From the NCBI GenBank assembly GCA_040384445.1, contig JAZKJG010000002.1, positions 160,823 to 224,822 on the forward strand: a DNA stretch of 64,000 bases, in the 5' to 3' direction. Source of the stretch: Patescibacteria group bacterium. Its GTDB lineage: Bacteria; Patescibacteriota; Minisyncoccia; Phycocordibacterales; CAIZLB01. The notes beneath the pieces are model-generated. The model made no database searches. It worked only from the letters and a program-made list of their open reading frames with translations, and was not told where the DNA came from. Numbering within the stretch: position 1 is the first letter of the stretch; each line of letters starts with the position of its first letter. Positions 22,916-50,164 of this stretch are shown here, piece after piece. A program made the position numbers and the translations under genes.

Positions 22916-22916
22916 T

Positions 22917-24077: not shown

Positions 24078-24547
24078 CTTATAAAAAAGGATTTACTCTT
24101 ATAGAACTTGTGCTGTACATGGGTGTATTTACCATTCTGGTGGTTGGAATTCTATATACATCAATGTATATACAGAAAGTATTACAAGATTCTGCTGTTC
24201 GATATGAAATTGACGAGATTATATACAGGCAGTTAGCATTACTTCAAAATCACATAACTCTTGCCACTCATATTGAAGTAAGCACAAGTAGTATTCGTAT
24301 GTATTCTCAAAACAGCATTGTCACACAAGAATTAAGAAGTGGTATTTTGTTTATGATATATGAATATGGCAACGGGCAAAAGAAAGAGTTTGCAATATAC
24401 CCAACTATGAAATTTTCGGAGTTTTCGTTTAGAGATAATGAGACAGGGGAGACTTTTGAGACCAAAAATCAACTGAGAGTACAGGTGGATAGAATAGGTG
24501 TGAAAGGAAAATTAATGTCCTTAGAAGAGTATTTCTACACCTATTAA
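24062..24547 (+). CDS. prepilin-type N-terminal cleavage/methylation domain protein (pilin/pseudopilin)
   Basis: MARNITYKKGFTLIELVLYMGVFTILVVGIL. 161 aa. Confidence 0.65.
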   Translation: MARNITYKKGFTLIELVLYMGVFTILVVGILYTSMYIQKVLQDSAVRYEIDEIIYRQLALLQNHITLATHIEVSTSSIRMYSQNSIVTQELRSGILFMIYEYGNGQKKEFAIYPTMKFSEFSFRDNETGETFETKNQLRVQVDRIGVKGKLMSLEEYFYTY

Positions 24548-24585
24548 AATCCCAGATACTATGATATAGTATGCAATATTAACGT

Positions 24586-25878
24586 ATGGCTTCATTTCGA
24601 GACATTGTCTTTTTTATCATCACTTTTTTCTCTGTATATGTTCAGGTTTTTTACTTGGTAACGTTTTTTCGGTATCAACATAAGATCTTGCGACGTACAG
24701 GAAAGGTTTACTTGAAAGAGTATCCTGCGGTAACTATTATAGTGCCTTGTTATGCAGAGGAAAGAACTGTGGAGAAAACAGTACATTCACTCCAGGAACT
24801 CAGATATCCAGAGGATAAGTTACATATTATTTTGGTTGATGACGGAAGTCCTGATAACACATGGCAAAAATTACAAGAGCTAGAAAGTAAGTATTCAAAT
24901 GTTCGTTCATTCACTAAAACAAATGGTGGTAAGCATACATGTTTAAATTTCGGATTAGAGAAGACAGAAACCCTATATGTTGGATGTCTTGATGCTGACT
25001 CACTTGTTCATCCAGAGGCGCTTGTGCGTATTATGTCTTACTTTGAGGGTAATATAAAACTTATGGCAGTGACTCCAACTCTTGTTGTTCATAATCCTAA
25101 ATCACTCGTACAAAGAGCACAGCGGGCAGAGTACAATGTGGGAACATACAATAAAAAAATGATGGGATTTTTAGGGGGTATTCATGTGACTCCTGGACCA
25201 TTCTCTATCTTTAAAAAGGAAGTGTTTGATACAATCGGTCCGTACAAAAAAGCTCACAATACAGAAGATATGGAGATTACGTTTAGAATGCATAGACAAG
25301 GATATTTGATTGATAACTGTAGTGATGCGTATGTATATACTCTAGGTCCTAAAACAATCTATGATTTATATCGTCAACGAGTGCGATGGATTTATGGATT
25401 CATGAAAAATATTATTGACTACAAAGAATTATTTTTTAAGAAAAAGTATGGGACATTAGGTTTCTTTACTCTTCCTTCTGGAATTATTTCTATTATTGCC
25501 GTGATCTTTATGATACTTTTTATTGTCCAAGGCCTTATAGGACCAGCGATTGTATTTTTTGAAAAATTATCTACACTAGGCTTTAATGTGAGTTTTTCAA
25601 ATATATTTAGTGCGCCATCATTTGATTGGTTTTATATTAATACAGAAACAGTTGCGCTTGTTGCATTAGCACTCTACACGCTAGTCCTATTCTCATTTAT
25701 TCTTGGAAAATGGGTATCAAGTAATTCGGAAACAAATTTGCTTGATGCAGTAATATTTTTTGGACTGTACTCTGTCATTGCTCCAATATGGTTATGTAAA
25801 GCATTATGGAATGTTTTGATAAATAGGGAGGACAGCTGGACAGTGGAGATAGACAAACGAGTACGTGAAAATTTATAA
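24586..25878 (+). CDS. processive family-2 glycosyltransferase (cellulose/chitin-synthase-like, QxxRW) with C-terminal TM bundle
   Basis: DDGS..D motifs (IILVDDGSPDNT; LDADS) and Q(R)xRW (YRQRVRWIYGF). N-terminal and C-terminal TM helices. Confidence 0.7.
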   Translation: MASFRDIVFFIITFFSVYVQVFYLVTFFRYQHKILRRTGKVYLKEYPAVTIIVPCYAEERTVEKTVHSLQELRYPEDKLHIILVDDGSPDNTWQKLQELESKYSNVRSFTKTNGGKHTCLNFGLEKTETLYVGCLDADSLVHPEALVRIMSYFEGNIKLMAVTPTLVVHNPKSLVQRAQRAEYNVGTYNKKMMGFLGGIHVTPGPFSIFKKEVFDTIGPYKKAHNTEDMEITFRMHRQGYLIDNCSDAYVYTLGPKTIYDLYRQRVRWIYGFMKNIIDYKELFFKKKYGTLGFFTLPSGIISIIAVIFMILFIVQGLIGPAIVFFEKLSTLGFNVSFSNIFSAPSFDWFYINTETVALVALALYTLVLFSFILGKWVSSNSETNLLDAVIFFGLYSVIAPIWLCKALWNVLINREDSWTVEIDKRVRENL

Positions 25879-25911
25879 ATAACATGATATGCTAACCAGT
25901 AATAAAAATAT

Positions 25912-26694
25912 ATGAGTTCTACAACAGAATTTGAAAAAGAATTTTCTAAAAAAGAAATTGAGCGTATAGAGAAAGTACACTCTGCACCAGGCTTTTCACC
26001 AATGCAATATTTGGTTGTGTTTGTTGTAACAGTGGGATTATTCCTAAGTGCATTTGGACTGAGTAATTATTTGAGTGATAGAAAATTGGATAAAGTAAAA
26101 TATATTCAAGATGATATTGCTATAGATATACTTTCTTCAGAAACTCAATTTGAACTCCTACAGGATATTTCATGTAAAGATGCAGGAGCTTCAGTACTTT
26201 CTTCTGAGCTCAATGACCTTGCACGACGAATTGAATATTCAGAACAATCTATTCAAAACATTGAAGAAGTTACTCGACTTAAAAAGTATTATTCAGTACT
26301 CCAGGTTAAAGATTATATTTTGATGAAAAAGGCTACAGAGCGATGTGGATTGAAAAGTGTGTTCGTATTATATTTCTATACAACCGAAAAGAATTGTGTA
26401 GAATGTGCACGACAAGGATACGTACTTACAGAACTACGAGACAAATATCCAGACCTACGAGTGTACTCTTTTGATTATGGGTTAGATCTTGGAATCATTC
26501 AGACACTGATTCGAACGTATAAGCTTTCAGATACAGAGCTACCAACACTTATAGTGGAAGGAGATGTGCTTACTGGATATCATGATTTAGAAGCAACAGA
26601 GGCTTTGTTGCCTGAGAAGTTTAGAAAAGAGCAGGCTGAGTTAATGAATGCAAAAGTAGCAACCTCTACCGCCTCTACTTCAAAGAAGAACTAA
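25912..26694 (+). CDS. membrane-anchored protein with thioredoxin-like CxxC region
   Basis: N-terminal TM. A beta-strand then CVEC (VFVLYFYTTEKNCVECARQ), resembling a thioredoxin-fold active site. Confidence 0.3.
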   Translation: MSSTTEFEKEFSKKEIERIEKVHSAPGFSPMQYLVVFVVTVGLFLSAFGLSNYLSDRKLDKVKYIQDDIAIDILSSETQFELLQDISCKDAGASVLSSELNDLARRIEYSEQSIQNIEEVTRLKKYYSVLQVKDYILMKKATERCGLKSVFVLYFYTTEKNCVECARQGYVLTELRDKYPDLRVYSFDYGLDLGIIQTLIRTYKLSDTELPTLIVEGDVLTGYHDLEATEALLPEKFRKEQAELMNAKVATSTASTSKKN

Positions 26695-26696
26695 AT

Positions 26697-27791
26697 ATGC
26701 CTCCAACAAACAAACCATATTTTGTTGGTTTAGATAATCTCAGAGCTTACGCATTTGCACTCGTTTTTTTGTCGCACATGTATTTCAATTTTTTTCCTGC
26801 AAATGAAGTATATAGAAAAACATTTGCACACGGAGAAATAGGGGTTCAAATCTTTTTTGTATTGAGTGCGTTTCTTATTATGTATCTGTCACTTCGAGAA
26901 TTTTCGAAAACAGGAACTTTTTCAGTTCTGCATTTTTTTAAAAAAAGAATTCTTAGAATTTGGCCAGTTTACTTTTTGGTAGTTGCAGTAAGTTATCTCA
27001 TCTACATTCTTTCCGGCACAACCGCGCAAATGAGTTGTACATACATGTTCTTATATTTTATGGGAAATACATGTATGATTCAAGATTTTGCACATGTGGG
27101 AGGGGCACTCACAATATCGCCACTGTGGTCAGTTTCTGTTGAACAACAATTTTATACAATTTTTCCACTTTTGTTTTTGTTGGCTATTGTTGTTTCAAAA
27201 AAGTATGCAGCCAAGTATAAACTATTGTTTTGTATAATAGCTTGTATCATTCCGTTAGTGGCCATTATCTACGCACTATATATTAGATATCTACACGTAG
27301 GAAATTGGAGATACACTGATTACTCACTCGCGTCATCTATTCCATCGCTTGTTTCTGGAATATGTCTTGGGTATATTATGTACGCACGGTTTAAGATTAT
27401 AGATCATATAAGATCTTACTCTAAAACATACGCGACTGTTGGAGCACTTATTTTTGCATGTGGAATAATATTAAAAACAACATATCCATGGGGAGCATTA
27501 CTATATGTAGTGCCAATTATTGGTTCAGTGTTGATTTATATTATTCTGGCAACAAAAGAGAGGGTGGTGTCGGAAGTTGTACAGAAAACTTCTGTTATAG
27601 AATACATGGGACGTATTTCATACGGACTATATGCCTACCATATGTTTGCTGTTGTAATTGTGCAAAAGTTTTTGTTTCCAACATACTCAAATATGCCACT
27701 TTTGGCGAGTTTGATGACGCTTGCGATCACGATTGTCATAGCTCATATTTCGTACAAGTACATGGAGTCTTGGTTTTTAAAATTTAAATAA
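26697..27791 (+). CDS. acyltransferase family 3 (OatA-like O-acyltransferase) membrane protein
   Basis: 364 aa with ~10 TM helices. Conserved N-terminal region (GLDNLRAYAFALVFLSHMY) typical of Acyl_transf_3. Confidence 0.7.
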   Translation: MPPTNKPYFVGLDNLRAYAFALVFLSHMYFNFFPANEVYRKTFAHGEIGVQIFFVLSAFLIMYLSLREFSKTGTFSVLHFFKKRILRIWPVYFLVVAVSYLIYILSGTTAQMSCTYMFLYFMGNTCMIQDFAHVGGALTISPLWSVSVEQQFYTIFPLLFLLAIVVSKKYAAKYKLLFCIIACIIPLVAIIYALYIRYLHVGNWRYTDYSLASSIPSLVSGICLGYIMYARFKIIDHIRSYSKTYATVGALIFACGIILKTTYPWGALLYVVPIIGSVLIYIILATKERVVSEVVQKTSVIEYMGRISYGLYAYHMFAVVIVQKFLFPTYSNMPLLASLMTLAITIVIAHISYKYMESWFLKFK

Positions 27792-38795: not shown

Positions 38796-39278
38796 TCAGG
38801 TTCCGATCTCTCTGGTTTCCATGATCAGATCGTATAACTTGTCGAAGAAAATTCCAAATAAAAAATCTGCAGGTTCAATTCTCTCATTGATTGCTGGATG
38901 AATGAAAGATTGCTTTGCATCACCCTGAGAAGGTGCGATGTAGAATACAGTTATATTGTCTCCTAAACACTGATCGATATGTTGTACGAATGTAAACTCA
39001 TGAGCCGACCGATCGTCAATATGCCTAACCGTGAGTGTAATACTTTTTTTATTGGGTAATCCTTGAAGTCCTTCAGGATTGCTCTGTTTTGCAATAGCCT
39101 GAAATTCTCCCGCCAATTCTGAACTCATAAGAGCATTGATCAAGTCTTTGATCGGCAAAGAAATCGAAGCGGTAATTCTATATCCGTGAATAGTTTTCAT
39201 TTTCAATATCAGGTTGAGTTGACCACCTAAAACGTAAGGTGCTGCAATACAGGCTATCACAGCTCTTCTGTATGTCAA
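38796..39278 (-). CDS. hypothetical protein (160 aa), GC-elevated
   Basis: ORF with its own strong terminator. GC is visibly higher than the flanking genes. No motif recognised. Confidence 0.4.
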   Translation of the reverse strand: MTYRRAVIACIAAPYVLGGQLNLILKMKTIHGYRITASISLPIKDLINALMSSELAGEFQAIAKQSNPEGLQGLPNKKSITLTVRHIDDRSAHEFTFVQHIDQCLGDNITVFYIAPSQGDAKQSFIHPAINERIEPADFLFGIFFDKLYDLIMETREIGT

Positions 39279-39310
39279 CTCACATTGATTGTGATAATAT
39301 TAGTGATATG

Positions 39311-40726
39311 AATAATGAAATACCTCAAGCTCCTCGTATCGTCAATTTTACAGACGAGACATTGAATCAAACATCTACACCAATAGTCACTCATCAGAAA
39401 ACCTCGACATACTCGTCAGGTTTTCTTTTTGCGTTCACTGCATTTGCTGCTGCATTAGTTGCATATATCTTCTATGGACCATTAATATACTTATTGATAA
39501 CAGAAACCCGGCTGTATTTTTTGCAGAACATTGATTTGACTCCATATATTGGCCTGATAGCAATTGTGGTTTCAGTATTTGGAGTAATTGTGCTTATCAA
39601 AAATATCGGGAAAGGATATGGGTACGTAAGAAATTTATTACCTCTAACTTTTTTAATTCATACAGCATTAATTTTTGTTCCACTTATCCCTGCTCTAAAT
39701 GATCCTGCAAATTATCTGATGGCCGAAAAGTATATTCTTTATGGTGTTATAGGATCAGCAATAATGACTCTTTTGGCTTTAATCTTTTCAATTATTATTT
39801 TGTATAGAAACTCGAAGGTTTTAGGTATTGTTTTAATGCTCGGATTAATTGGAGTTACCGGTTGGGCAGTTCTTAATAATGCTCAATTTAAAACTGATTT
39901 AGAGGTTAAAGCAGGCATGGGTTCAGAATTAGATTCACATTCAAACTCAGGTCCTCAAAGAATTCAAACAATGAATGGAATTCTTACTTTTACTCTCGGT
40001 GATAATGTTGATTATGAGAATTGGGGACATGCAACTTCAGAGGCTGCGTTGATATTTACTGAAAACAATAAAGGAAGTGGAACTTTATTTGGTGGTTGTG
40101 GTGCAGGATCTTCATTTATAGAAGTGATTGAAGATTTGGACAAGACTATTTATCATACAAATGATCGGTTAAATGTAAGAAAGGAAACATATGGAAATAA
40201 TATATATGTTGTTTATGATTGGGCATTTGAACCATCAATCTCTTACTATGAGTTGTATTATAAAAATACTAGAGTACATATTGTGTATCGTCCGAATGAA
40301 CCATGTGCAGTTGGAAAAAACTACAGACCAGATCTAGAACTCTTATTAAAAACATTTAATTATGAAGGATACGAAAAAGGAGAACCTGAGGTGGCTAAAC
40401 CTGCACCAGTAATTGTAAAGACTGCAGTTGTTGCAAAGGAAAAAACACCTCCAAAATCAAATATTACAAAACAAGGAGAAGGTAAGTTTGAAAGTACTAT
40501 ATATTCTGATTTATCTTTTACACCTCAAATAGATAAAACATATGTGTCTGATGCACAGGTAAATTATTGGTATGATTTAATGTGGGTAAAAGGAGTATCA
40601 GTAAGTAATTATGAGTGTGAAGATAAATCAGCATCTATGATAAAAAGTACCGATGCGAATACTAGAGCTACAGGAATTGCGCAGGTAAATGCATGCCTGT
40701 ATGTGATGCTGTACATGATGCCGTAG
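39311..40726 (+). CDS. membrane protein (N-terminal multi-TM domain + ~270-aa Cys-containing C-terminal domain)
   Basis: ORF 39239-40726. The start MNNEIPQ at 39311 avoids overlap with the minus-strand gene. About 6-7 TM helices then a soluble domain. Confidence 0.45.
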   Translation, partial: NNEIPQAPRIVNFTDETLNQTSTPIVTHQKTSTYSSGFLFAFTAFAAALVAYIFYGPLIYLLITETRLYFLQNIDLTPYIGLIAIVVSVFGVIVLIKNIGKGYGYVRNLLPLTFLIHTALIFVPLIPALNDPANYLMAEKYILYGVIGSAIMTLLALIFSIIILYRNSKVLGIVLMLGLIGVTGWAVLNNAQFKTDLEVKAGMGSELDSHSNSGPQRIQTMNGILTFTLGDNVDYENWGHATSEAALIFTENNKGSGTLFGGCGAGSSFIEVIEDLDKTIYHTNDRLNVRKETYGNNIYVVYDWAFEPSISYYELYYKNTRVHIVYRPNEPCAVGKNYRPDLELLLKTFNYEGYEKGEPEVAKPAPVIVKTAVVAKEKTPPKSNITKQGEGKFESTIYSDLSFTPQIDKTYVSDAQVNYWYDLMWVKGVSVSNYECEDKSASMIKSTDANTRATGIAQVNACLYVMLYMMP

Positions 40727-40764: not shown

Positions 40765-42870
40765 ATGGCGTTACCAGAAAAATACAAATCTCCTTATGAA
40801 TCAACCAAAGTTGAAGGACCTGTCTATGACAAGGAATTAAACTCTGGTTTTTTTACACCTGAAAATTTGGTAAAAGCATTTCCTGAAAGATACAATGCTG
40901 ATGCATGGACAACAATTACACCCCCACCAAATGCAAACGGAAGACTTCATGCAGGTCATGCACTTGATGTAACTCTCAAAGATATCATTGGGCGATTTAA
41001 GCGTATGAATAACAAGAGGGTGTTAATGCTTCCTGGATCTGATCATGCAGGATTTGAAACACAAGTGGTATATGAAAAGAAATTAGAGAAAGAGGGAAGA
41101 AGTAGATTTGGTATGGATAGGGATATTTTGTACAAAGAGATTTATGATTTTACGATTCAAAATAAAGACACTGTAGCCGGAGAGGTAAAACGAATCGGAG
41201 CATCATATGACTGGAGCAGAGATACATTTACACTTGATGAAAAAGTTGTAAGTGGAGTTCAAGATACATTTATAAAAATGTATAACGATGGATTGGTATA
41301 CAGAAGTAAGCGAGATGTAAACTGGTGTTCAAAACATCAAACATCGCTTTCAGATGTGGAGACAACAAACAAAGAATTAGTTGACACATTCTATACATTT
41401 AAGATTGGAGAATTTTTAATTGGAACATCACGACCAGAAACAAAGTTTGGCGACAAATATATTGTGGTTCATCCAACTGATCCACGTTACTCTAAATATT
41501 CTCACGGAGATACATTTACTGCAGAATGGATATTGGGAGAAACAACATTTACAATCATCAAAGATGAAAGTATTGATATGGAATTTGGAACTGGTGCAAT
41601 GACAATTACTCCATGGCACTCAAGTATAGACTTTGATATTGCAAAGAAACATAATCTTGAAATGGTGCAGGTGATTGATGAAAACGGTAAGCTTATGGAA
41701 ATAGCGGGAGAACTCAAAGGACTTCGAGCTATAACAGAAGGACGAAAACGAACTGTTGAATTATTAGAACAAAAAGGATTACTTGTTGAGAAAAATGAAA
41801 AATACACTCACGTAGTTCCAGTGTGTTACAAATGTGAGACTCCAATCGAACCGCAACTTAAAGATCAATGGTTTGTGAAAATGGCACCACTTGCAGAGAA
41901 GGCTCTAGAAGCCTCAAAAAAAGGAGAGATTAATTTCGTTACGGATCAATTTAGAAAAACATATGAGTATTGGATGAGTAATCCTATTGACTGGAATATT
42001 TCTCGGCAAATTGTATGGGGAATTAGAATTCCTGCATGGTTTAAAAACAAGGGAACAGAAAACGAAGAATACTATATCGGTCACGAAAATCCGGGGGCAG
42101 AATGGGTGCAGGATATTGATACATTCGATACATGGTTTTCTTCAGGGCAATGGCCTGTCGCAACACTTGGATTTGTTGGGGGAAAAGATATGGAATATTA
42201 TCCAACTCAACTTATGGAAACGGGACGAGATCTTGTTTTTAAATGGGTTCCTCGAATGGTTATTTTCGGATTGTATTTAACAGGTGAAGTTCCGTTCAAG
42301 GATATTTATCTGCATGGTATGGCACTAGATGAGAAAGGGCAAAAGATGAGTAAGAGTAAAGGAAATGTAATGAGTCCAATTGATCTTGCAGACGAGTTTG
42401 GAATGGATGCACTTCGAATGTCACTTATTGTTGGAAGTACTCCAGGAAATGATGTATCAATGTCTAAAGATAAAATCCGAGCGTATAAAAAATTCGTAAA
42501 CAAACTGTGGAACATTACACGCTTTGTTCTTGAGAATACTGAAGGAGTCAATCTTGACGTCAATCTTGACAACGATAAAGCGAAAAGAATTCAAGAAGTA
42601 AAAGATGCTATTGCTAAGCATATAAATGAATATCAGTTACATCTTGGAGCTGAAGAATTGTACCACTATGTATGGCATGAGTTTGCAGATGTTGTGATTG
42701 AAGATGTGAAGAAAGATTTAACAGATGAAAATAAAGCATTGTTAAAATACATGTTGAAAGAAATTGTGACAATGGCACATCCGTTTATGCCATTTGTAAC
42801 AGAGGAGATTTGGGGTGATATTCGAAGTGAGGGTGATGTTGAGTTGTTGCTTGTAAAAGAATGGAAATAA
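40765..42870 (+). CDS. valS: valyl-tRNA synthetase (shortened, no C-terminal coiled-coil)
   Basis: Class I HIGH region (PPPNANGRLHAGHAL, ValRS-like PPPNxTG context) and KMSKS (QKMSKSKGN). 701 aa. Confidence 0.7.
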   Translation: MALPEKYKSPYESTKVEGPVYDKELNSGFFTPENLVKAFPERYNADAWTTITPPPNANGRLHAGHALDVTLKDIIGRFKRMNNKRVLMLPGSDHAGFETQVVYEKKLEKEGRSRFGMDRDILYKEIYDFTIQNKDTVAGEVKRIGASYDWSRDTFTLDEKVVSGVQDTFIKMYNDGLVYRSKRDVNWCSKHQTSLSDVETTNKELVDTFYTFKIGEFLIGTSRPETKFGDKYIVVHPTDPRYSKYSHGDTFTAEWILGETTFTIIKDESIDMEFGTGAMTITPWHSSIDFDIAKKHNLEMVQVIDENGKLMEIAGELKGLRAITEGRKRTVELLEQKGLLVEKNEKYTHVVPVCYKCETPIEPQLKDQWFVKMAPLAEKALEASKKGEINFVTDQFRKTYEYWMSNPIDWNISRQIVWGIRIPAWFKNKGTENEEYYIGHENPGAEWVQDIDTFDTWFSSGQWPVATLGFVGGKDMEYYPTQLMETGRDLVFKWVPRMVIFGLYLTGEVPFKDIYLHGMALDEKGQKMSKSKGNVMSPIDLADEFGMDALRMSLIVGSTPGNDVSMSKDKIRAYKKFVNKLWNITRFVLENTEGVNLDVNLDNDKAKRIQEVKDAIAKHINEYQLHLGAEELYHYVWHEFADVVIEDVKKDLTDENKALLKYMLKEIVTMAHPFMPFVTEEIWGDIRSEGDVELLLVKEWK

Positions 42871-42872
42871 AG

Positions 42873-42906
42873 AAAACCCCTCAGCCGTAGCTGGGGGTTT
42901 TTTTGA
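42873..42906. terminator. bidirectional terminator CCCCTCAGC-cgta-GCTGGGGG + TTTTTTT
   Basis: Lies between the convergent valS (+) and the 42915 gene (-). Confidence 0.65.
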
Positions 42907-42914
42907 ATCTTTTT

Positions 42915-43502
42915 TCACTGAGCGAGGGTGATTGTTTTGATCACACCGTCTCCTCCTTTGATGGAAGTGAGGTAACTCGCCTCGTACGTAGGGTTCATGA
43001 TTTGCATCGCTGCCTGAAATTCCGTGATGGTATTGTCGAGCATTGAATCATGAATAGGATGGCCGTATACACTATCGGTTTCTTTTCCGGTGGTCATCCT
43101 TTCCATGAAAGCAGAGAGATCGGGCAGTCCTGCGTCGGGAATGGTGGCGAGTACGGCTTGCATTGCGCATAGGGTACGCAATGCAGTCTCAAACTCCTCG
43201 TCCAAAGTGTTTCCTTGAAGGAATGTCTTTGAGTCAAAGAAATCTGGAGGATGCACAGTGAATCTCATGGCGGTAATGTACTCTTCCTTGTACTTTTTTA
43301 CTTCCACAAATTTGGCAGCGTATACATCGAACACTTTTTTCTTCGCTGCAGGATCAGCTTTGAATACTGCTACAGCGGTTTCGTTCTTTGAACTCTTCGT
43401 GGGCTTGTTTAGTTTCCACCAAACAAATGATGCGATCAATGCGACAGCAAGAAACATGCTGGTGAACGTGAGTCGATTAGCTTGGTCAATACTTATTTTC
43501 AT
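42915..43502 (-). CDS. membrane-anchored hypothetical protein (195 aa), GC-elevated
   Basis: N-terminal TM (FTSMFLAVALIASFVWW). The rest is soluble. ~47% GC by eye. Confidence 0.4.
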   Translation of the reverse strand: MKISIDQANRLTFTSMFLAVALIASFVWWKLNKPTKSSKNETAVAVFKADPAAKKKVFDVYAAKFVEVKKYKEEYITAMRFTVHPPDFFDSKTFLQGNTLDEEFETALRTLCAMQAVLATIPDAGLPDLSAFMERMTTGKETDSVYGHPIHDSMLDNTITEFQAAMQIMNPTYEASYLTSIKGGDGVIKTITLAQ

Positions 43503-43594
43503 AAAGGTCAGGTGTTAAGGGTGAAGTAATGCTGTAAAATACCATACCATATATCTCAGAAAAATCAAACACCCGCACATGATATCATCTACAT

Positions 43595-44329
43595 ATGAAG
43601 AAAATCATTGCTTTTGACCTCGACGGAACCCTTGCTGAAAGTAAGCATCCTATATCGCAAGATATGGCAATTCTTATTTCAAAACTAACTGAAAAAGCAA
43701 AAGTGATTGTTATTTCAGGTGGATCATATTCTCAATATGAGAAACAATTTATTCCGCAAATGGGAACTGAACATCTTGAGAATATTATTCTTATGCCTAC
43801 AAACGGAAGTGTACGATATGAATACAAAAATAATGAACCGAGGGTAACAAAATCATTTCCATTTAATGATGAAGTGAAAGAGAAAGTGTTAGCAGAGTTG
43901 AATACGATTATTGGAAATGAAGAATTCGAAGTTCCTACAGAACATTTTGGGGAATATATCGAAGATCGAGGGACACAAATTACATTTTCAGGATATGGAC
44001 AGCTAGCGCCAATTGAAAAGAAAATGATCTGGGATTTATCACGGTCAAAGAGATTGAAAATTAAAGAATATTTAGAATCAAAAATTCCTGAGATTGATGC
44101 ACATGTTGGAGGTATGACGTCAGTTGATATTCTTCCAAAGAATTTTAATAAAGCATCAGGGTTAATGGCTTATCTTGAGGAAAATGATTTAACGACAGAC
44201 GATATTGTATTTATTGGTGACGCGGTATTTCCAGGCGGTAATGATTATTCGCCATCACAAGTTGGAATCGAGACTATTTCCACAAATGGACCAGAGCATA
44301 CGAAAGAGATCATAGAAACGTTGCTTTAG
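43595..44329 (+). CDS. HAD-IIB family hydrolase, eukaryotic-type phosphomannomutase-like
   Basis: DxDGT motif I (IIAFDLDGTLAES), motif II (VISGGS), C-terminal GDAVFPGGNDY. Size ~245 aa as in the PMM family. Confidence 0.55.
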   Translation: MKKIIAFDLDGTLAESKHPISQDMAILISKLTEKAKVIVISGGSYSQYEKQFIPQMGTEHLENIILMPTNGSVRYEYKNNEPRVTKSFPFNDEVKEKVLAELNTIIGNEEFEVPTEHFGEYIEDRGTQITFSGYGQLAPIEKKMIWDLSRSKRLKIKEYLESKIPEIDAHVGGMTSVDILPKNFNKASGLMAYLEENDLTTDDIVFIGDAVFPGGNDYSPSQVGIETISTNGPEHTKEIIETLL

Positions 44330-44356
44330 CCTCTCGAATAAAGGTAAAATAGGTAA

Positions 44357-44719
44357 ATGAATGAAGACATCAGAAAAGACATTTATGAAGAGAAGCGACC
44401 GTGGGGGAGCTTTAGGAAATTTACACAAAACGTCTCAACAACAGTAAAAATTATTGAGATCTTACCAGGAGAAAGTTTAAGTCTACAAACACATCGACAC
44501 AGGGGCGAATTTTGGCGAATCATTGGAGGGAATGGAATAGTGGAAATAAACGGAAAACGAACAGAAGCTGTAAAAGGTGGAGAGTTTTTTATACCTACAC
44601 AAGCAACACATCGAGCGATTGGTGGAAATGAAACTCTTGAAATTCTAGAGATTGCGACTGGAGATTTTGATGAAGCAGATATTGAAAGATTAGAAGATAA
44701 ATACGGTCGTATCGCGTAA
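44357..44719 (+). CDS. cupin-2 domain protein (mannose-6-phosphate isomerase type II cupin-like)
   Basis: 120 aa. HRHRGEFWRIIGGNG...IPTQATHRAIGG, with metal-binding His residues in a cupin arrangement. Confidence 0.5.
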   Translation: MNEDIRKDIYEEKRPWGSFRKFTQNVSTTVKIIEILPGESLSLQTHRHRGEFWRIIGGNGIVEINGKRTEAVKGGEFFIPTQATHRAIGGNETLEILEIATGDFDEADIERLEDKYGRIA

Positions 44720-44720
44720 T

Positions 44721-45788
44721 ATGTTTAAGCTTAAAAGAGTACAGGATAAACCAATATTTCAACCTGATAAAAATCTTTTTTGGGAAAAGGAAGGAGTGTT
44801 TAATGCTGGTGTAATAGAAAAAGATGGTGAAATATATATGTTGTATAGAGCAGTGGGTGAGAAAGGTGCATACATTTCACACATCGGTTTAGCTAAAAGT
44901 AAAAATGGTATAAAATTTGACAGAGTCAGTGATCAGCCTGTATTTGGTCCATCAAAAGAATATGACAAATGGGGAACAGAAGATCCAAGGATTACGAAAA
45001 TTGGTGATGAATATTTTGTGACGTATGTTGCTATTCCAGAGCGAATTATGGACCACGGTCAAAGTATTCAAAGAGAAGTTCCTCTAACGACATCTATGGC
45101 GCTTTTGAAAACAAAAGATTTTTTAACATTTGAACACTTAGGTGTTATTACTCCATTTGGGTCAGACAACAAAGACGTGGTTTTATTTCCAAAAAAAATT
45201 CCACATATTGATGAGCATGGAGTATCAACACTTCGATATGCAATGTTGCACAGACCTAATCGATGGTCAAAAGATTGGTTGCATGGACCATATGCTTCTA
45301 AGGTTCCAATACATCTTCCTTTCCATGAAGAAGATATGCCTCAAAAACCAAGTGTGTGGATTGCATGGTCAGATGATTTAATTACATGGGATTCTCATAA
45401 ACCACTTATGGTTCCTTCAAAAGTACATTCCGCAAAAAATGGTCCTGGACTTCCGCCGATTGAAACTCCAGATGGATGGCTTGTGATTTATCACCATGTA
45501 AATGAAAATCAAACTACAAAAAAGCTGACATATACAGTTCGAGCGGCACTTTTTGATCTAAAAGATCCTACAAAATATATAGGGAAAATTCCATACGATA
45601 TCTTGATTCCTGAAGTTTCTTTTGAAACTGAAAATGGGTCTGCCATAGTATTTCCGACAGGGGGATTTGTGAAGGATGATGTGCTATACATATACTATGG
45701 CTGTAGTGATATGTATGTAGGACTTGCCACAGGCTCATTGAGCGAATTAATTACAGAACTCAAACATGTTGGCCCGCCAATCAATTAA
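44721..45788 (+). CDS. GH130 family glycoside phosphorylase/hydrolase (beta-mannoside phosphorylase-like, DUF377)
   Basis: N-terminal FNAGVIEKDGEIYMLYRAVG, HIGLAKSKNGIKF and WGTEDPRITKIGDEY, typical of the GH130 5-bladed propeller. Confidence 0.7.
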   Translation: MFKLKRVQDKPIFQPDKNLFWEKEGVFNAGVIEKDGEIYMLYRAVGEKGAYISHIGLAKSKNGIKFDRVSDQPVFGPSKEYDKWGTEDPRITKIGDEYFVTYVAIPERIMDHGQSIQREVPLTTSMALLKTKDFLTFEHLGVITPFGSDNKDVVLFPKKIPHIDEHGVSTLRYAMLHRPNRWSKDWLHGPYASKVPIHLPFHEEDMPQKPSVWIAWSDDLITWDSHKPLMVPSKVHSAKNGPGLPPIETPDGWLVIYHHVNENQTTKKLTYTVRAALFDLKDPTKYIGKIPYDILIPEVSFETENGSAIVFPTGGFVKDDVLYIYYGCSDMYVGLATGSLSELITELKHVGPPIN

Positions 45789-45793
45789 CCTTT

Positions 45794-48064
45794 ATGCCTA
45801 CATCTCAAAACAACAGCGCCGCAATGTGGATTGTCTTTCTCTCAACGTTCCCACCTCGAGAGTGTGGTTTGGCGACATTTACTTCTGATCTTGTAAATAG
45901 TTTTGATACACTGTTTTCTCCACAAGAAGAAACCAAAGTTATTGCAATGGAGACAGAGGGTTCAATCGCTACTACTATAGGGACACCTGTTGATGAGGGT
46001 AAGGTTATTTTTAGAATTTCTGAAAATAAAAAAGACGATTATATAAAAGCTGCGGAATATTTGAACTCATTAGATCATGTGAAGATTGTTTCTATACAAC
46101 ACGAGTTTGGAATTTTTGGAGAAAACGACGGAGAGAATGTTTTGATTTTTCTGGAGCATATTCAAAAACCAGTAGTTGTAACATTTCACACGGTACTCCC
46201 TAGACCTGATGAACAGAAGTTGAAAATTATTCAAAAGATTGGTGAGAAGGCGGCGCAACTTGTTGTGATGACACATGCATCCCAGGCTATTCTTGAAAGC
46301 GTGTACGCTATCCCATCGTCAAAAATTAAAATGATTCATCATGGAATTCACGAATTACCTTATTTAGATAGTTCAGTTGCAAAGCGAATACTTGATAAGA
46401 GATCACTCACAAAATTAATTGAGCTTTCTGGTAAAAGAATTATTTCTACATTTGGATTGTTAAATAGAGGAAAGGGAATTGAATATGCAATTGAAGCATT
46501 ACCTGCGATCGTAAAAGAATTTCCAGATGTACGATACTTGATCTTGGGTGCAACCCACCCAGTTGTGTTTAGAAGAGAAGGACCTGTGTATATAAATGAA
46601 TTACGAGCTAAAGCAGAAAAACTCGGAGTACTCGAATATATTTGTTTTTTTGATTCATATATTGCCACAAAAGATTTGCTGACATTTTTGCAGGCAACAG
46701 ATGTGTATGTGTCTCTCTCTCAAAACCCAGATCAAGCGGTCTCAGGAACGCTTACGTATGCTCTCGGAGCAGGGCGAGCTGTTGTGTCCACACCATTCAT
46801 GCAAGCTCGAGAAATAGTTACTCCTGAAGTAGGGCATCTTGTTGATTTTGGAAATGCAGAATCTATTGCACATGCAGTTGTTTCTCTGTTTACTCACCAG
46901 CAAGATTTACAGAATAAAAATAAAGCAGCATATTTCAGAACACGAGGAATGATCTGGCCAAATATTGCGCTTTCGTATATGCAGGGATTTATTTCACTTT
47001 CTCCAGAGTTGGCACTCAAAGAAAAAGCATTGCCACCGCTTAATCTTTCGCATGTTCGAAATATGACAGATGAGTTTGCCATGTTTCAGTTTGCGACATT
47101 TACAACACCAGATCCAGTTTCAGGATATACACTTGACGATAATGCTCGTGCACTTATATGTATGACGTGGGTGAAGAATAAAGAATCTGTGCTGGATTTA
47201 ATACGGGTCTACTTGTCGTTCCTAGAAAAAGCATCACTAGCAGGGGGATTTGAAAATTATTATGATGCAGATAAGATAGAGAATCATATTAGGAATACTC
47301 AAGAAAATCTTGAAGATTCGAACGCGCGAGCGTTGTGGGCGGTTGCAGAAACCTATGCGGGAGAATCTGATGAAGAAATAGAAAAGCGCGCAGAAAAATT
47401 ATTTATGTATCAGCTTGCACACCATACTCGAGTGTCTTCACCGCGTGCTGCTGCTTTTTATGTTAAAGCTTTTTCTGTGTGGCTCGCATCTGGAAAAACA
47501 TCTGAAGATGTAACTCACTTGTTAATTGGACACATTACTTTTTATGCAGATTTCTTAATGTCTATTTTGAAAGATAACGAAACTCCTGATTGGATTTGGT
47601 TTGAAGGTGCAATGACCTATTCGAATGCACTTCTACCAGAAGCACTTTTCTTAGCTCATCAAAGTACAGGATATGAACACTATCTTGATGCTGCAAAAAG
47701 AACGCTTGATTTCTTACTACAAAATTCTTTTGAAGGAAACATGTGTGTACCAATTGGACAAGCAGGTTGGTTTAGAAGGGGGGAGGTAAAAGAAATGTAC
47801 GACCAACAACCTGAAGAGGTATCTGCGCTGGTGTTATGTCTACATACAGCATTGTCTGTTACAAAAAACGAGATATATCAAGTGCGTATGAAGAGTGCAT
47901 TTGAATGGTTCCTCGGAAAAAACATCTTAGGACAAGTGATTTATTCATATGGTAGTGGTGGGTGCTACGATGGACTAGGAAATCAATACATTAATCTTAA
48001 CCAAGGAGCTGAATCTACTGTGTCGTACTTGTTGGCACGCCTTGTCTTAGAAAGAGATAACTAA
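45794..48064 (+). CDS. family-4 glycosyltransferase (GT-B) fused to a ~350-aa C-terminal domain of unknown type (possibly (alpha/alpha)6 glycosidase-like)
   Basis: The GT4 region covers about aa 1-400 (two Rossmann halves, EX7E-like region near ALGAGRAVVSTPF). The remaining ~350 aa are helix-rich (FEGAMTYSNALLPEALFLAHQ). Confidence 0.6.
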   Translation: MPTSQNNSAAMWIVFLSTFPPRECGLATFTSDLVNSFDTLFSPQEETKVIAMETEGSIATTIGTPVDEGKVIFRISENKKDDYIKAAEYLNSLDHVKIVSIQHEFGIFGENDGENVLIFLEHIQKPVVVTFHTVLPRPDEQKLKIIQKIGEKAAQLVVMTHASQAILESVYAIPSSKIKMIHHGIHELPYLDSSVAKRILDKRSLTKLIELSGKRIISTFGLLNRGKGIEYAIEALPAIVKEFPDVRYLILGATHPVVFRREGPVYINELRAKAEKLGVLEYICFFDSYIATKDLLTFLQATDVYVSLSQNPDQAVSGTLTYALGAGRAVVSTPFMQAREIVTPEVGHLVDFGNAESIAHAVVSLFTHQQDLQNKNKAAYFRTRGMIWPNIALSYMQGFISLSPELALKEKALPPLNLSHVRNMTDEFAMFQFATFTTPDPVSGYTLDDNARALICMTWVKNKESVLDLIRVYLSFLEKASLAGGFENYYDADKIENHIRNTQENLEDSNARALWAVAETYAGESDEEIEKRAEKLFMYQLAHHTRVSSPRAAAFYVKAFSVWLASGKTSEDVTHLLIGHITFYADFLMSILKDNETPDWIWFEGAMTYSNALLPEALFLAHQSTGYEHYLDAAKRTLDFLLQNSFEGNMCVPIGQAGWFRRGEVKEMYDQQPEEVSALVLCLHTALSVTKNEIYQVRMKSAFEWFLGKNILGQVIYSYGSGGCYDGLGNQYINLNQGAESTVSYLLARLVLERDN

Positions 48065-48150
48065 TATTTGAAATGGGATTTGTAAGGTTTGACTTAATCT
48101 AAATACAATGGTATATTGTAAAAGGAAATTAATTCAAACTAGTTAATAAA

Positions 48151-48627
48151 ATGCAAAAAAATCAATGTACTTTAGGGGATTCTCAAGAAGATGTCTCGCT
48201 CATGTTGGCTAGACAATATACTGCACAATCCGAAACTCAACCTGTCATGTACGGTGAGGTTAAGGATTGGCAAGAGAATAATGCTCGTAAATTATACGAG
48301 GCTCAAAAAATAGTCAATCAACTCGATTCAAATGCGCTTAATGTATACCGTCTCTTTCGCTCAGTTGGACTTCCTGTTTCTTGGCCTAATTTCTTTCAAC
48401 GCCTTCAGATTCGGAGAGAGCAAAGGAAAGTAATGAAGGTTGCACAGGCTGATATTGCTCTTCGTAAAAAAATTATTACTTTGTTCGAAGAAATTCAGAG
48501 TCTTCGTAAAAGAGACTTGATACAAGAGAGGTTTGAGTTGAGGAATAGTATAATAAAATTTAACTCTCTCATCACTCAACATGGAGATCGACTCGGTTTA
48601 AACTATCGTCGCGAGCAAAACATATGA
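48151..48627 (+). CDS. hypothetical protein (158 aa, helical/basic)
   Basis: ORF only. Confidence 0.35.
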   Translation: MQKNQCTLGDSQEDVSLMLARQYTAQSETQPVMYGEVKDWQENNARKLYEAQKIVNQLDSNALNVYRLFRSVGLPVSWPNFFQRLQIRREQRKVMKVAQADIALRKKIITLFEEIQSLRKRDLIQERFELRNSIIKFNSLITQHGDRLGLNYRREQNI

Positions 48628-48688
48628 TCCAAAACTACACCACAAGGTTCAAGCCCCTGGGTGTTTTTTTAATGATATAATCCAAATT

Positions 48689-50164
48689 ATGCTCCAATCA
48701 ACTGCCCTCAATATTCTTAAAACTGGTGCATCCGTTTTTCTTACCGGAGAACCAGGATCTGGAAAAAGCTACACTATTAAACAGTATGTAGATTATTTGG
48801 CACAGAATGGTGTATATGCTTCTGTTACTGCTAGTACTGGTATTGCCGCGACACACATTGGAGGAATGACCATACACTCATGGGCAGGTATTGGTATTAA
48901 AGAGAGTTTGAGTATTTATGACATAGAAGCACTTCATGAAAAAGAATATATTGTAAAAAGATTATTGAAGGCAAAAGTTCTTATTATAGATGAGATTTCT
49001 ATGCTCTCTGGAAATACATTTGATATGGTAAATGCAGTATGTAAAAGCATAAGACAAGTTGAAGATAGACCGTTTGGTGGACTGCAAGTTATATGTGTTG
49101 GGGATTTTTTTCAGCTCCCTCCGATTATTAAAAAAAGTACAAATAGTCTAGAACTCTTTGAAGATAACGGGTTTGTGTTTTCGTCTTCTGCATGGAAAGA
49201 ACTAAAACCACTAACATGCTATCTTTCGGAACAACATAGACAGAGTGATGCAAAATTTACAAAAACACTTGCACAGATACGAAGTAATACTGTGGACGAA
49301 GAAGTGCACGACGTTCTTCGAAGTAGAGTGGTAAAAGAATTAACAGTACTACCTGACGCAACAAAACTGTATTCACATAATGCACACGTTGATACGGTAA
49401 ACAATCGTGAGATTGGAAAGCTAGAAGGGAAGGTAAAAATTTATGGTATGACTATGAAAGGAAAAGAGACCATGACTGCAAGTTTGATAAAAAGTTGTTT
49501 GTCTCCAGAAAAGCTTGAACTCAAAATTGGTGCAAAAGTTATGTTTACAAAAAATAATCCTGATAAGGGTTTTGTAAATGGAACAACTGGAACTCTTGTT
49601 GAATTTCATTATGATGTACCTCGTGTGAAAGTTGCAAATGGTATGACAATTGATGTTGAGCCAATGGATTGGAGTATTCAAGATCAAGGAAAAATTCTTG
49701 CTTCAATTACACAGATTCCACTTCGACTTGCGTGGGCAATAACAATTCATAAGAGTCAGGGAATGAGTCTAGATGCTGCAATCATGGACCTTTCTCAGGT
49801 TTTTGAATATGGACAAGGGTATGTTGCGCTCTCTCGTGTACGGACCCTGGATGGTCTACATGTGATTGGATATAACGACAGAGCACTGCAGGTTCATCCA
49901 CGAGTACAAGAAGAAGATGAATTATTTAAGGAGCAATCAAAAGAAGCAGAAGTGCAGATTTTTCAAATGGATAAAGGTGAGTTATCTAGAATTCAAGATA
50001 AATATATCTCTTCTATTGCAGGGGTGAAAAAAGGTGAGGAAAAAGAGAAGGAGAAAAAAACTACCGGTAAGAAAAATTGGGGATGGAAGACTAAGACGAA
50101 GAAAAAAGTGAGTGGGGATGATACGTATAAAGTTGAGTATGAAGGGGATGGGGATGTGTATTAA
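48689..50164 (+). CDS. PIF1-family (RecD-like, SF1B) ATP-dependent DNA helicase
   Basis: Walker A (GEPGSGKS), motif II (LIIDEISML), the Pif1 signature region (FGGLQVICVGDFFQLPPI) and a C-terminal KSQG motif (ITIHKSQG). Confidence 0.7.
   Translation: MLQSTALNILKTGASVFLTGEPGSGKSYTIKQYVDYLAQNGVYASVTASTGIAATHIGGMTIHSWAGIGIKESLSIYDIEALHEKEYIVKRLLKAKVLIIDEISMLSGNTFDMVNAVCKSIRQVEDRPFGGLQVICVGDFFQLPPIIKKSTNSLELFEDNGFVFSSSAWKELKPLTCYLSEQHRQSDAKFTKTLAQIRSNTVDEEVHDVLRSRVVKELTVLPDATKLYSHNAHVDTVNNREIGKLEGKVKIYGMTMKGKETMTASLIKSCLSPEKLELKIGAKVMFTKNNPDKGFVNGTTGTLVEFHYDVPRVKVANGMTIDVEPMDWSIQDQGKILASITQIPLRLAWAITIHKSQGMSLDAAIMDLSQVFEYGQGYVALSRVRTLDGLHVIGYNDRALQVHPRVQEEDELFKEQSKEAEVQIFQMDKGELSRIQDKYISSIAGVKKGEEKEKEKKTTGKKNWGWKTKTKKKVSGDDTYKVEYEGDGDVY

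Follow-up and report, generated by a model that had tools for sequence, protein, structure and literature searches.

A compact operon joining a GH130 phosphorylase-like enzyme to a GT4 glycosyltransferase fused with an (alpha/alpha)6-barrel domain in a Patescibacteria group bacterium

Described mannoside systems and the operon of the window

The closest described counterpart of the operon analyzed here is the CHARACTERISED system (Thermoanaerobacter sp. X-514 cluster Teth514_1785-1796; PMC4264767), in which GH130 phosphorylases, a GT4 glycosyltransferase and a 350-aa protein annotated as 'hypothetical' lie in one co-directional block with alpha-mannose-1-phosphate (Man-1-P) as the hub. Chiku et al. 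(2014) characterized only the two GH130 enzymes, Teth514_1788 (1,2-beta-oligomannan phosphorylase) and Teth514_1789 (a phosphorylase of beta-1,2-mannobiose), and proposed a pathway for salvage of GDP-mannose (GDP-Man), no source of beta-1,2-oligomannan being known for Thermoanaerobacter (PMC4264767). According to a transcriptome study, genes Teth514_1785-1787 are co-transcribed, and their expression rises when an adapted Thermoanaerobacter strain is exposed to 6 % ethanol (PMC3751872). The operon in question lies in a stretch of 64,000 nucleotides from a Patescibacteria group bacterium (contig JAZKJG010000002.1; the whole stretch is referred to as the window) and encodes, in order, a HAD-type hexose-phosphate mutase, a cupin of the phosphomannose isomerase (PMI) family, a GH130 enzyme, and a 756-aa protein in which a GT4 domain is followed by a C-terminal domain (CTD). 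It represents a compact version of the Thermoanaerobacter cluster, with phosphomannomutase (PMM) and PMI replacing the guanylyltransferase.

When the Thermoanaerobacter locus was fetched using a Teth514_1788 sequence rebuilt from printed alignments, the gene order was found to be LacI, ABC importer, GH5, GH130, GH130, Man-1-P guanylyltransferase, a 391-aa GT4, and the 350-aa protein. The GT4 (corresponding to Teth514_1786) is 38 % identical to the GT4 domain of the window (4e-92) and the 350-aa protein (corresponding to Teth514_1785) is 32 % identical to the CTD (9e-55); by sequence comparison, the 756-aa protein is a fusion of the Teth514_1786 and Teth514_1785 families. Unlike the window, Thermoanaerobacter keeps GT4 and CTD as separate genes, has two GH130 enzymes, and has LacI, the ABC importer and GH5 attached.

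Comparison across genomes shows that the conserved unit is GH130 together with the GT4-CTD fusion and not the set of four genes, the HAD mutase and the cupin being accessory. At about even confidence, the operon is read here as a cytoplasmic module for the synthesis and mobilization of a mannoside, centred on Man-1-P.

Four other described systems resemble parts of such a module. In Leishmania, mannogen is a cytosolic beta-1,2-mannan reserve that enzymes of the GH130 fold both build and phosphorolyze to Man-1-P, with exchange of hexose with central metabolism (cited in PMC12814180 and PMC10913872). That system differs in being eukaryotic, in employing GT108 mannosyltransferase/phosphorylases rather than GH130, and in having no GT4 or (alpha/alpha)6 partner; the likeness is one of working principle only, and no carrier of the window module is known to contain beta-1,2-mannan. 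The two domains of the 756-aa protein also resemble the mycobacterial methylmannose polysaccharide pair ManT (GT4; PDB 7qsg) and MmpH ((alpha/alpha)6 hydrolase; 7qsj), although identities are 17 % and 11 %, the two are not the top matches, they are not fused, no GH130 accompanies them, and methyltransferases are included. The mannan pathway that combines GH130 with an AGE-type epimerase (4-O-beta-mannosylglucose phosphorylase with cellobiose/mannobiose 2-epimerase) differs in that the CTD family has no invariant His and the window GH130 bears beta-1,2, not beta-1,4, determinants. The cyclic beta-1,2-glucan synthase Cgs is a membrane-bound protein acting on glucose that unites a GT84 domain, an (alpha/alpha)6 cyclization domain and a GH94 phosphorylase; all three domains belong to families different from those of the window module, the sugar is glucose and not mannose, and the location is the membrane.

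Conservation of the GH130 and GT4-CTD pair

One genome per species was scanned with a CTD profile, and the best 80 of at least 600 matching stretches were retained as loci (designated by L numbers), 67 loci being informative in that their upstream sequence is long enough. In 45 of these 67 the GH130 gene is the direct upstream neighbor of the GT4-CTD gene, on the same strand and within 400 nt, and in 55 of them a GH130 is found anywhere in the locus. Carriers include Patescibacteria, Omnitrophota, many Bacteroidota, Woesearchaeota (DPANN), Promethearchaeota/Hodarchaeota (Asgard) and a Methanosarcinales metagenome-assembled genome (MAG). In two unrelated lineages GH130, GT4 and CTD constitute a single open reading frame (ORF) with short natural linkers (L002:1563-4838, 1091 aa; L077:5787-9077, 1096 aa). 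GT4 and CTD are split, with GH130 nearby, in L081 and in the loci of Thermoanaerobacter (L084) and Thermoanaerobacterium (L090); the latter contains GH130, guanylyltransferase, GT4 and CTD and has no importer close by.

The operon has its nearest relatives in Patescibacteria and Minisyncoccia MAGs. The exact four-gene order of the window recurs, with overlapping stops and starts, in the Minisyncoccia MAG L003 (identity to the window 38 % for HAD, 51 % for the cupin, 55 % for GH130, 54 % for GT4 and 47 % for the CTD), and the related contigs L001 and L002 carry subsets of the four genes, so that the arrangement is not due to chance. Within the window, the four plus-strand ORFs of the original prediction were all found again at exactly the same positions (43595-48064), and all four family assignments hold at Pfam gathering scores; the sole correction concerns the middle junction, given as a 1-nt overlap, which reads TAA-t-ATG and is a 1-nt spacer, between spacers of 27 nt and 5 nt. 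With spacing this tight, the order kept in L003, adjacency across phyla and fusion into single ORFs, the notion that the four genes are functionally unrelated neighbors is contradicted by the conservation data and hardly tenable.

The HAD mutase occurs in 4 of 81 loci and the cupin in 10, and beyond GH130 and GT4-CTD no other gene family occurs in more than 12. The original prediction had taken the four genes for a salvage operon: the link it drew from Man-1-P through mannose-6-phosphate (Man-6-P) to fructose-6-phosphate (Fru-6-P) is reinforced by gene context, whereas the four genes as a unit are not, given the counts for HAD and cupin. A simple salvage route would moreover leave the most conserved gene, GT4-CTD, without a role. 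A classical phosphoglucomutase (PGM)/PMM stands in place of the HAD mutase in three DPANN loci, ROK and GHMP kinases occur in some archaeal loci and phosphofructokinase (PFK) in Flavobacteria, the cupin in some loci having these kinases or PFK as neighbors, and a Man-1-P guanylyltransferase lies between GH130 and GT4 in Firmicutes. Searches for the guanylyltransferase by motif and tblastn found none in the 64-kb window nor in 79 of the 80 surveyed loci; it was found only in L005 and the Firmicutes loci.

Several further genes accompany the fusion in individual loci. A 315-aa gene immediately downstream of it, with no GH130 upstream, is present in L009:9049-9996, L012:9053-10003, L023:9038-9982 and L034:9038-9988; these genes share an LEDPR motif and have no Pfam or NCBIfam match, and the L009 and L034 copies match the GH130 profile weakly (E about 2e-6); the encoded protein may be a divergent GH130-like propeller. 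A GDE_C/GH100/MGH1-like hydrolase occurs in eight loci; in the Patescibacteria loci L019, L025, L033, L053 and L069 this (alpha/alpha)6 protein has ~390-430 aa and lies downstream of the fusion, directly so in four of the five and ~4 kb away in L033, and it is absent from the window. In a Dehalococcoidia MAG (L083:16-4776) the genes after a stand-alone CTD encode a methyltransferase, a PIG-L deacetylase, a GT4 and a GH100/MGH1-like hydrolase, a different accessory set that suggests a modified glycan. In a Neomarinimicrobiota MAG (L091:914-14981) a GH130 of the Teth514 type lies in an ABC-importer locus where three MGH1-like/GH63/GDE_C (alpha/alpha)6 proteins and one GH32 are also encoded, GH130 being paired here with a different (alpha/alpha)6 family.

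The encoded proteins and their surroundings

The GH130 protein matches PF04041 at 143.6 bits (cutoff 26; 8.9e-42) and 18 GH130 chains of the PDB, best among them Teth514_1788 (9fj8, 3e-50) and Teth514_1789 (7fip, 1e-44). Aligned with the rebuilt Teth514_1788 sequence it is 43 % identical, and N28, R43, E87, D88, K151, R178, H258, Y271, E302 and D330 are identical to N29, R44, E92, D93, K143, R161, H214, Y222, E253 and D282, respectively; this signature (N-R-E-D-K-R-H-Y-E-D) is common to all 59 linked GH130 enzymes and the characterized Teth514 enzymes. The catalytic Asp of the EDPR motif (D88, aligned with D93) is invariant in the 59, as are the phosphate-binding R178 and H258; the third basic position (K239) is variable within the family. 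Retention of basic phosphate-binding residues marks a phosphorylase and their replacement by Glu a hydrolase (PMC4599007), while a Glu before the catalytic Asp and a conserved Lys at the +1 subsite are the markers of beta-1,2 specificity (PMC4599007, PMC12814180). The phosphate-binding Arg and His on which the predicted phosphorylase assignment turned are thus present, no loss of the hydrolase type is seen, and E87 and K151 are the determinants of the beta-1,2-specific subgroup (GH130_4/_6). The NCBIfam equivalog for beta-1,2-mannobiose phosphorylase (NF052550) is matched at 212 bits, below its cutoff of 450.

The linked GH130 enzymes form two clades, the window type and a majority type, which share ~35 % identity, both with one another and with the enzymes of Thermoanaerobacter. 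Those of the window clade are ~35-43 % identical to characterized enzymes and possess an extra loop of ~25 aa: the segment following the phosphate-binding Arg has 36 residues in this clade (the window and L001-L003), against 19 in the majority clade linked to GT4-CTD and ~10 in Teth514_1788. In GH130 this region, loop L2, decides whether GDP-Man can be accommodated (PMC12814180).

In the 756-aa protein, the Pfam models Glycos_transf_1 and Glyco_trans_1_4 match residues ~120-380, and by fold the GT4 domain is an ordinary GT-B enzyme, with sucrose-phosphate synthase Tll1590, PimB', MshA, HepE, BshA, PimA, TreT and ManT as fold neighbors. The subfamily is distinguished by its own set of invariant residues. 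In GT4 enzymes the second Glu of the canonical EX7E motif binds the nucleotide ribose; here this motif is not kept: residues 314-323 (window 46733-46762) correspond to (D/N)Q-AVSGTL-x-Y family-wide, the window positions reading P/D...Y. Among 58 full-length fusions, Q314 is invariant and S317, G318, T319 and Y322 are at least 90 % conserved; the Lys and the Gly-rich phosphate-binding elements are kept.

Family-wide replacement of EX7E by (D/N)Q...Y raises the alternative that the GT4-like domain is a retaining phosphorylase or transglycosylase acting on sugar-1-phosphate, with the module running on Man-1-P (or on Man-1-P plus glucose-1-phosphate) without nucleotide sugars. The scarcity of guanylyltransferase genes in the surveyed loci points the same way, as does an operon that supplies Man-1-P but no activating enzyme, and one phosphorylase type, trehalose phosphorylase, is known in GT4 (listed in PMC4264767). 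This alternative is nonetheless very unlikely: in Firmicutes the Man-1-P guanylyltransferase directly upstream of GT4 is the classic signature of a GDP-Man user, the phosphate-binding elements persist, loss of EX7E is no proof of lost nucleotide binding, and the negative result for the window covers only 64 kb of the genome.

The CTD (355 aa) matches no Pfam or NCBIfam model. A homologue search returned about 1,700 relatives, and an exhaustive profile search 5,616 representative clusters (E <= 1e-3), of which 1,318 reach E <= 1e-30. Among the best 150 matches, 70 are GT4-CTD fusions of at least 690 aa (700-810 aa among those listed) and 55 have 330-480 aa, which corresponds to a CTD standing alone, and may include fragments. 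A seemingly shorter GT4+CTD architecture of ~610 aa proved to be an artefact of a length-limited homologue list, true fusions having 700-810 aa in the exhaustive search.

The predicted structure of the CTD is an (alpha/alpha)6 barrel (pLDDT 95, predicted TM-score (pTM) 0.93, from an alignment of 49 sequences), which bears out the expectation of a carbohydrate-enzyme fold, and in the full-length model (pLDDT 93, pTM 0.92) the linker is ordered, so that the two domains are predicted to be a single rigid unit. The only close structural relative of the CTD model is YPO2471 of Yersinia pestis (PDB 7tem, deposited by structural genomics as a 'putative exported protein'), followed by GH9, AGE-family epimerases and GH76. 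The CTD family profile matches 7tem (3.4e-23), the two aligning at the DDxARA and NxNxGAES motifs, so that profile match, common motifs and top structural similarity all place the CTD in a YPO2471-like (alpha/alpha)6 family. The likeness to GH63, GH15 or GDE suggested by the original prediction does not hold in particular: these families give no sequence match and are not the closest fold, and membership in them was rejected.

Conserved CTD residues fall where alternate helices begin, the placement that a pocket at one barrel end would call for. D449, D726 and E740 do not vary among the 58 full-length fusions, and none of the His positions is conserved; this pattern speaks against the mechanism of an AGE-type epimerase and would suit a hydrolase or transglycosylase with carboxylate-based catalysis. 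The CTD is probably a glycoside hydrolase or transglycosylase outside the characterized families, as far as its conserved residues allow the activity to be judged. AGE enzymes use a catalytic His pair; an AGE-type epimerase or mannose isomerase was rejected for a family with no conserved His. GH76 alpha-1,6-mannanases have a catalytic Asp-Asp pair; the CTD has a DD pair (D448, D449) that may or may not be its structural counterpart, and the match to the GH76 profile is marginal (E 0.004) and covers a different segment.

YPO2471 itself differs from the CTD (19 % identity) in carrying a signal peptide and no GT4 fusion, and it sits in loci of the importer or polysaccharide utilization locus (PUL) type with GH13. 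Similar proteins adjoin GH130 and GH13 in Serratia (L087:7383-8657, 424 aa, with signal peptide), where DUF1861 and a porin-like gene are also found, and in a Flavobacterium franklandianum PUL (L089:8459-9792). No NCBIfam model match lies behind the NCBI label 'sugar phosphotransferase' on YPO2471 relatives. Occurrence of the (alpha/alpha)6 family beside GH130 even at 19 % identity supports a carbohydrate-cleaving role on mannoside-containing substrates.

The HAD protein scores 46.7 bits with Pfam PMM (PF03332; cutoff 22.4) and 75.8 with TIGR01484 (HAD-IIB; cutoff 41.8), and it also passes the gathering score of Pfam Hydrolase_3. Its best PDB match, over the full length, is 4bnd, the HAD-type alpha-phosphoglucomutase of Lactococcus lactis (4.6e-33), followed at 1e-8 to 1e-14 by PMM1, PMM2 and PMMs of parasites, and no phosphatase appears before 1e-3. 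The DxDGT nucleophile motif (D8, D10; nt 43616-43624) and the C-terminal PMM-type GDxxxPGGNDY motif align with 4bnd. In accordance with the prediction of a PMM-like HAD, the protein thus groups with hexose-phosphate mutases and not with sugar phosphatases; by these matches it is a mutase-type HAD, which may prefer either mannose or glucose phosphates. The cupin matches Pfam MannoseP_isomer (PF01050) at 71.7 bits (cutoff 23.6; 7.7e-20) over profile positions 11-116 of 116, that is, nearly the whole model of the PMI C-terminal domain, which agrees with its description as type-II-PMI-like. Of the bifunctional guanylyltransferase/PMI model (TIGR01479) it covers only profile positions 360-467 (69.7 bits against a cutoff of 373), and the N-terminal guanylyltransferase domain is absent from this 120-aa protein. 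A PDB search found no solved PMI-type structure matching it.

The HAD-IIB assignment also bears on an alternative in which the operon makes a compatible solute in two steps, after the pattern of sucrose phosphate or mannosylglucosyl-phosphoglycerate: GT4 would act on a phosphorylated acceptor, the HAD-IIB protein would be the phosphatase, and GH130 and CTD would degrade or remodel the solute. A precedent is offered by the mannosylglucosylglycerate (MGG) pathway, in which MggA, a GT4 alpha-mannosyltransferase, is followed by a phosphatase (PMC3736172); weak matches of the HAD protein to the S6PP and SPP families, the GDE_C/GH100/MGH1-like hydrolases in 8 loci, and the induction of the Thermoanaerobacter genes by ethanol stress are in line with it. 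It is distinctly unlikely, however, since the HAD protein matches mutases far better than phosphatases and has the PMM-type GGNDY motif, is present in few loci and gives way to a classical PGM/PMM mutase at its position in DPANN, and since the cupin PMI would be left without a role. For the same reasons (better mutase matches and replacement by PGM/PMM in DPANN) a solute-phosphate phosphatase activity of the HAD protein was considered unlikely. The originally suggested participation of GH130 homologues in mannosylglucosylglycerate synthesis was not confirmed, a literature search having found no such link.

The coordinates of the features are collected in Table 1. The operon is bounded upstream by a terminator-like hairpin (42878-42897) that follows a ValRS-like gene and by a divergent ORF (42915-43502, minus), and downstream by an 86-nt gap with a promoter-like site, followed by an ORF without Pfam match and a PIF1-type helicase. 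No strong sigma-70-like site was scored in 43503-43594, promoter and terminator scans gave results no better than shuffled controls, and no Rfam family, riboswitch or leader was matched around the operon (42800-48800; single hit, E 0.54). The four proteins have no transmembrane-like segments (maximum Kyte-Doolittle 19-residue mean 1.29) and, judged by hydropathy only, no hydrophobic segment of the kind needed for a signal peptide. An exact-sequence look-up of the 756-aa protein returned no entry on record.

Table 1. Features of the operon and its upstream region (positions in the window)
Feature	Position	Strand	Basis
Upstream intergenic region, 92 nt, shared with divergent ORF; presumed promoter region	43503-43594	+	inference
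HAD-IIB hexose-phosphate mutase, eukaryotic-PMM / bacterial alpha-PGM type, 244 aa	43595-44329	+	Pfam, TIGR01484, 4bnd
Single-domain cupin, type-II phosphomannose-isomerase family, 120 aa	44357-44719	+	Pfam MannoseP_isomer
GH130 beta-1,2-mannoside phosphorylase-like enzyme, 355 aa	44721-45788	+	Pfam, PDB matches
Extended loop after HR(178) in GH130, residues 179-213, loop L2 region	45255-45359	+	alignment
GT4-CTD fusion ORF, 756 aa	45794-48064	+	
GT4-type GT-B glycosyltransferase domain of the 756-aa protein, residues 1-401, Teth514_1786 homologue	45794-46996	+	
C-terminal (alpha/alpha)6-barrel domain (CTD), residues 402-756, homologue of 'hypothetical protein' Teth514_1785	46997-48064	+	

Elsewhere in the window (G+C about 37 %), aminoacyl-tRNA synthetases and GyrB are encoded. 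Positions 20748-27791 contain type IV pilus genes (T2SSE ATPase, T2SSF platform and two prepilin-like proteins), after which come a GT2 glycosyltransferase, a 260-aa ORF and an Acyl_transf_3 membrane acyltransferase, a set typical of genomes of the candidate phyla radiation (CPR). Together with the operon's closest relatives, this gene content and the G+C value indicate a Patescibacteria/CPR genome. Near the operon, ORFs without Pfam match are found at 39239-40726 (495 aa), 42915-43502 minus (195 aa) and 48151-48627 (158 aa), and the 195-aa protein has a hydrophobic segment at its N-terminus.

Possible synthesis, mobilization or salvage of a mannoside

The fold and family of each part of the module, the conservation of its catalytic residues, and its gene linkage and fusions are established. 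In the synthesis and mobilization scheme, GH130 and GT4-CTD would act on the same soluble intracellular glycan or glycoside. GT4 would start or extend this molecule by attaching a sugar in alpha linkage, probably mannose with GDP-Man as donor, and the rigidly attached (alpha/alpha)6 domain would trim, prime or recycle it, as cognate hydrolases accompany many polysaccharide synthases. GH130 (beta-mannoside + phosphate <-> alpha-Man-1-P + acceptor) would add beta-1,2-mannosyl units from Man-1-P or remove them with phosphate, depending on the ratio of Man-1-P to phosphate. The HAD mutase (Man-1-P <-> Man-6-P) and the cupin isomerase (Man-6-P <-> Fru-6-P) would connect the Man-1-P pool reversibly to Fru-6-P, so that mannose units could be drawn from or returned to glycolysis without ATP. 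The identities of the substrates, the net direction of flux, hydrolysis by the CTD, and a glycan that is made rather than imported are inferred.

The gene fusions, the lack of transporters in most loci, and the likeness to ManT and MmpH favor a single pathway over mere salvage. A module centred on Man-1-P is also consistent with the fact that all accessory genes handle hexose phosphates, with the reported ethanol-stress induction of Teth514_1785-1787 (PMC3751872), with the full-length model in which GT4 and CTD are predicted to be a single rigid unit, and, as regards a cytoplasmic location, with the lack of membrane segments or signal-peptide-like stretches in the four proteins.

A number of points weigh against it. 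Neither the product of the module nor an activity of any member of the GT4 subfamily or the CTD family is on record. With GDP-alpha-Man as donor a retaining GT4 forms alpha-linkages, while beta-mannosides are the substrates of GH130; one bond cannot serve both enzymes, and the scheme therefore needs a molecule of mixed linkage, of which none has been observed. The Thermoanaerobacter module adjoins an ABC importer, GH5 and LacI, which points to an imported substrate, and an accessory set with kinases and PFK suggests flux in the catabolic direction. The supply of GDP-Man is left unaccounted for, since neither the 64-kb window nor 79 of the 80 loci yielded a Man-1-P guanylyltransferase; the closest characterized relative of the HAD protein is an alpha-phosphoglucomutase, its preference for mannose being assumed; and nine informative loci have GT4-CTD without GH130 within 8 kb.

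Several of these points would fit salvage of imported beta-1,2-mannosides, a model that unites the main idea of the original prediction with the one of Chiku et al. (2014) and in which GH130 would yield Man-1-P, PMM and PMI would lead it into glycolysis, and GT4-CTD would use part of it, via GDP-Man, for an unrelated glycoconjugate. The Thermoanaerobacter GH130 genes lie behind LacI, the ABC importer and GH5, GH130_6-like genes lie in transporter loci in Caldicellulosiruptor and Neomarinimicrobiota, and kinases and PFK are found as accessory genes; phosphorolysis is, in addition, favored at cellular phosphate concentrations. This explanation is possible but doubtful. The operon and most of the 80 loci lack any transporter, binding protein or secreted enzyme (secreted glycosidases included), and the Thermoanaerobacterium block of GH130, Man-1-P guanylyltransferase, GT4 and CTD has no importer nearby. 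Salvage gives no reason for a single GH130-GT4-CTD ORF arising twice independently, nor for tight adjacency across bacteria and archaea, and no natural source of beta-1,2-oligomannan is known for such bacteria (PMC4264767).

Beyond the synthesis and mobilization module itself, an ambitious extension, which is unlikely, would make the triad of GH130, GT4 and (alpha/alpha)6 domain an unrecognized bacterial and archaeal machine that builds and mobilizes an intracellular reserve or stress glycan containing beta-1,2-mannoside, a counterpart of Leishmania mannogen organized like the cyclic beta-1,2-glucan synthase. If that were true, the CTD/YPO2471 proteins would found a new family of glycoside hydrolases or transglycosylases, and the motif-altered GT4 might work from Man-1-P and not GDP-Man. 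Each enzyme family is already known, and the split version of the cluster was published in 2014 (PMC4264767). A literature search found no report of Teth514_1785 as a member of a very large (alpha/alpha)6 family related to 7tem, of its type of domain fused to a motif-altered GT4 subfamily, or of a GH130, GT4 and CTD triad conserved across phyla (triple fusions included), and a search on YPO2471 found nothing relevant.

Bacterial beta-1,2-mannoside phosphorylases have been well characterized in vitro since 2014, and their physiological substrate is still sought. They are now tied genetically, up to fusion, to one GT4 subfamily and to one (alpha/alpha)6 family that comprises ~5,600 sequence clusters and extends over Patescibacteria, Bacteroidota, Firmicutes, DPANN and Asgard archaea. 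This tie offers a concrete route to the substrate of the phosphorylases, namely the product of the GT4-CTD fusion protein, and identification of that product would give a function to a large 'hypothetical' family and to the orphan structure 7tem. For the Patescibacteria, with their reduced genomes, the module would be one of few pathways of carbohydrate storage or stress response.

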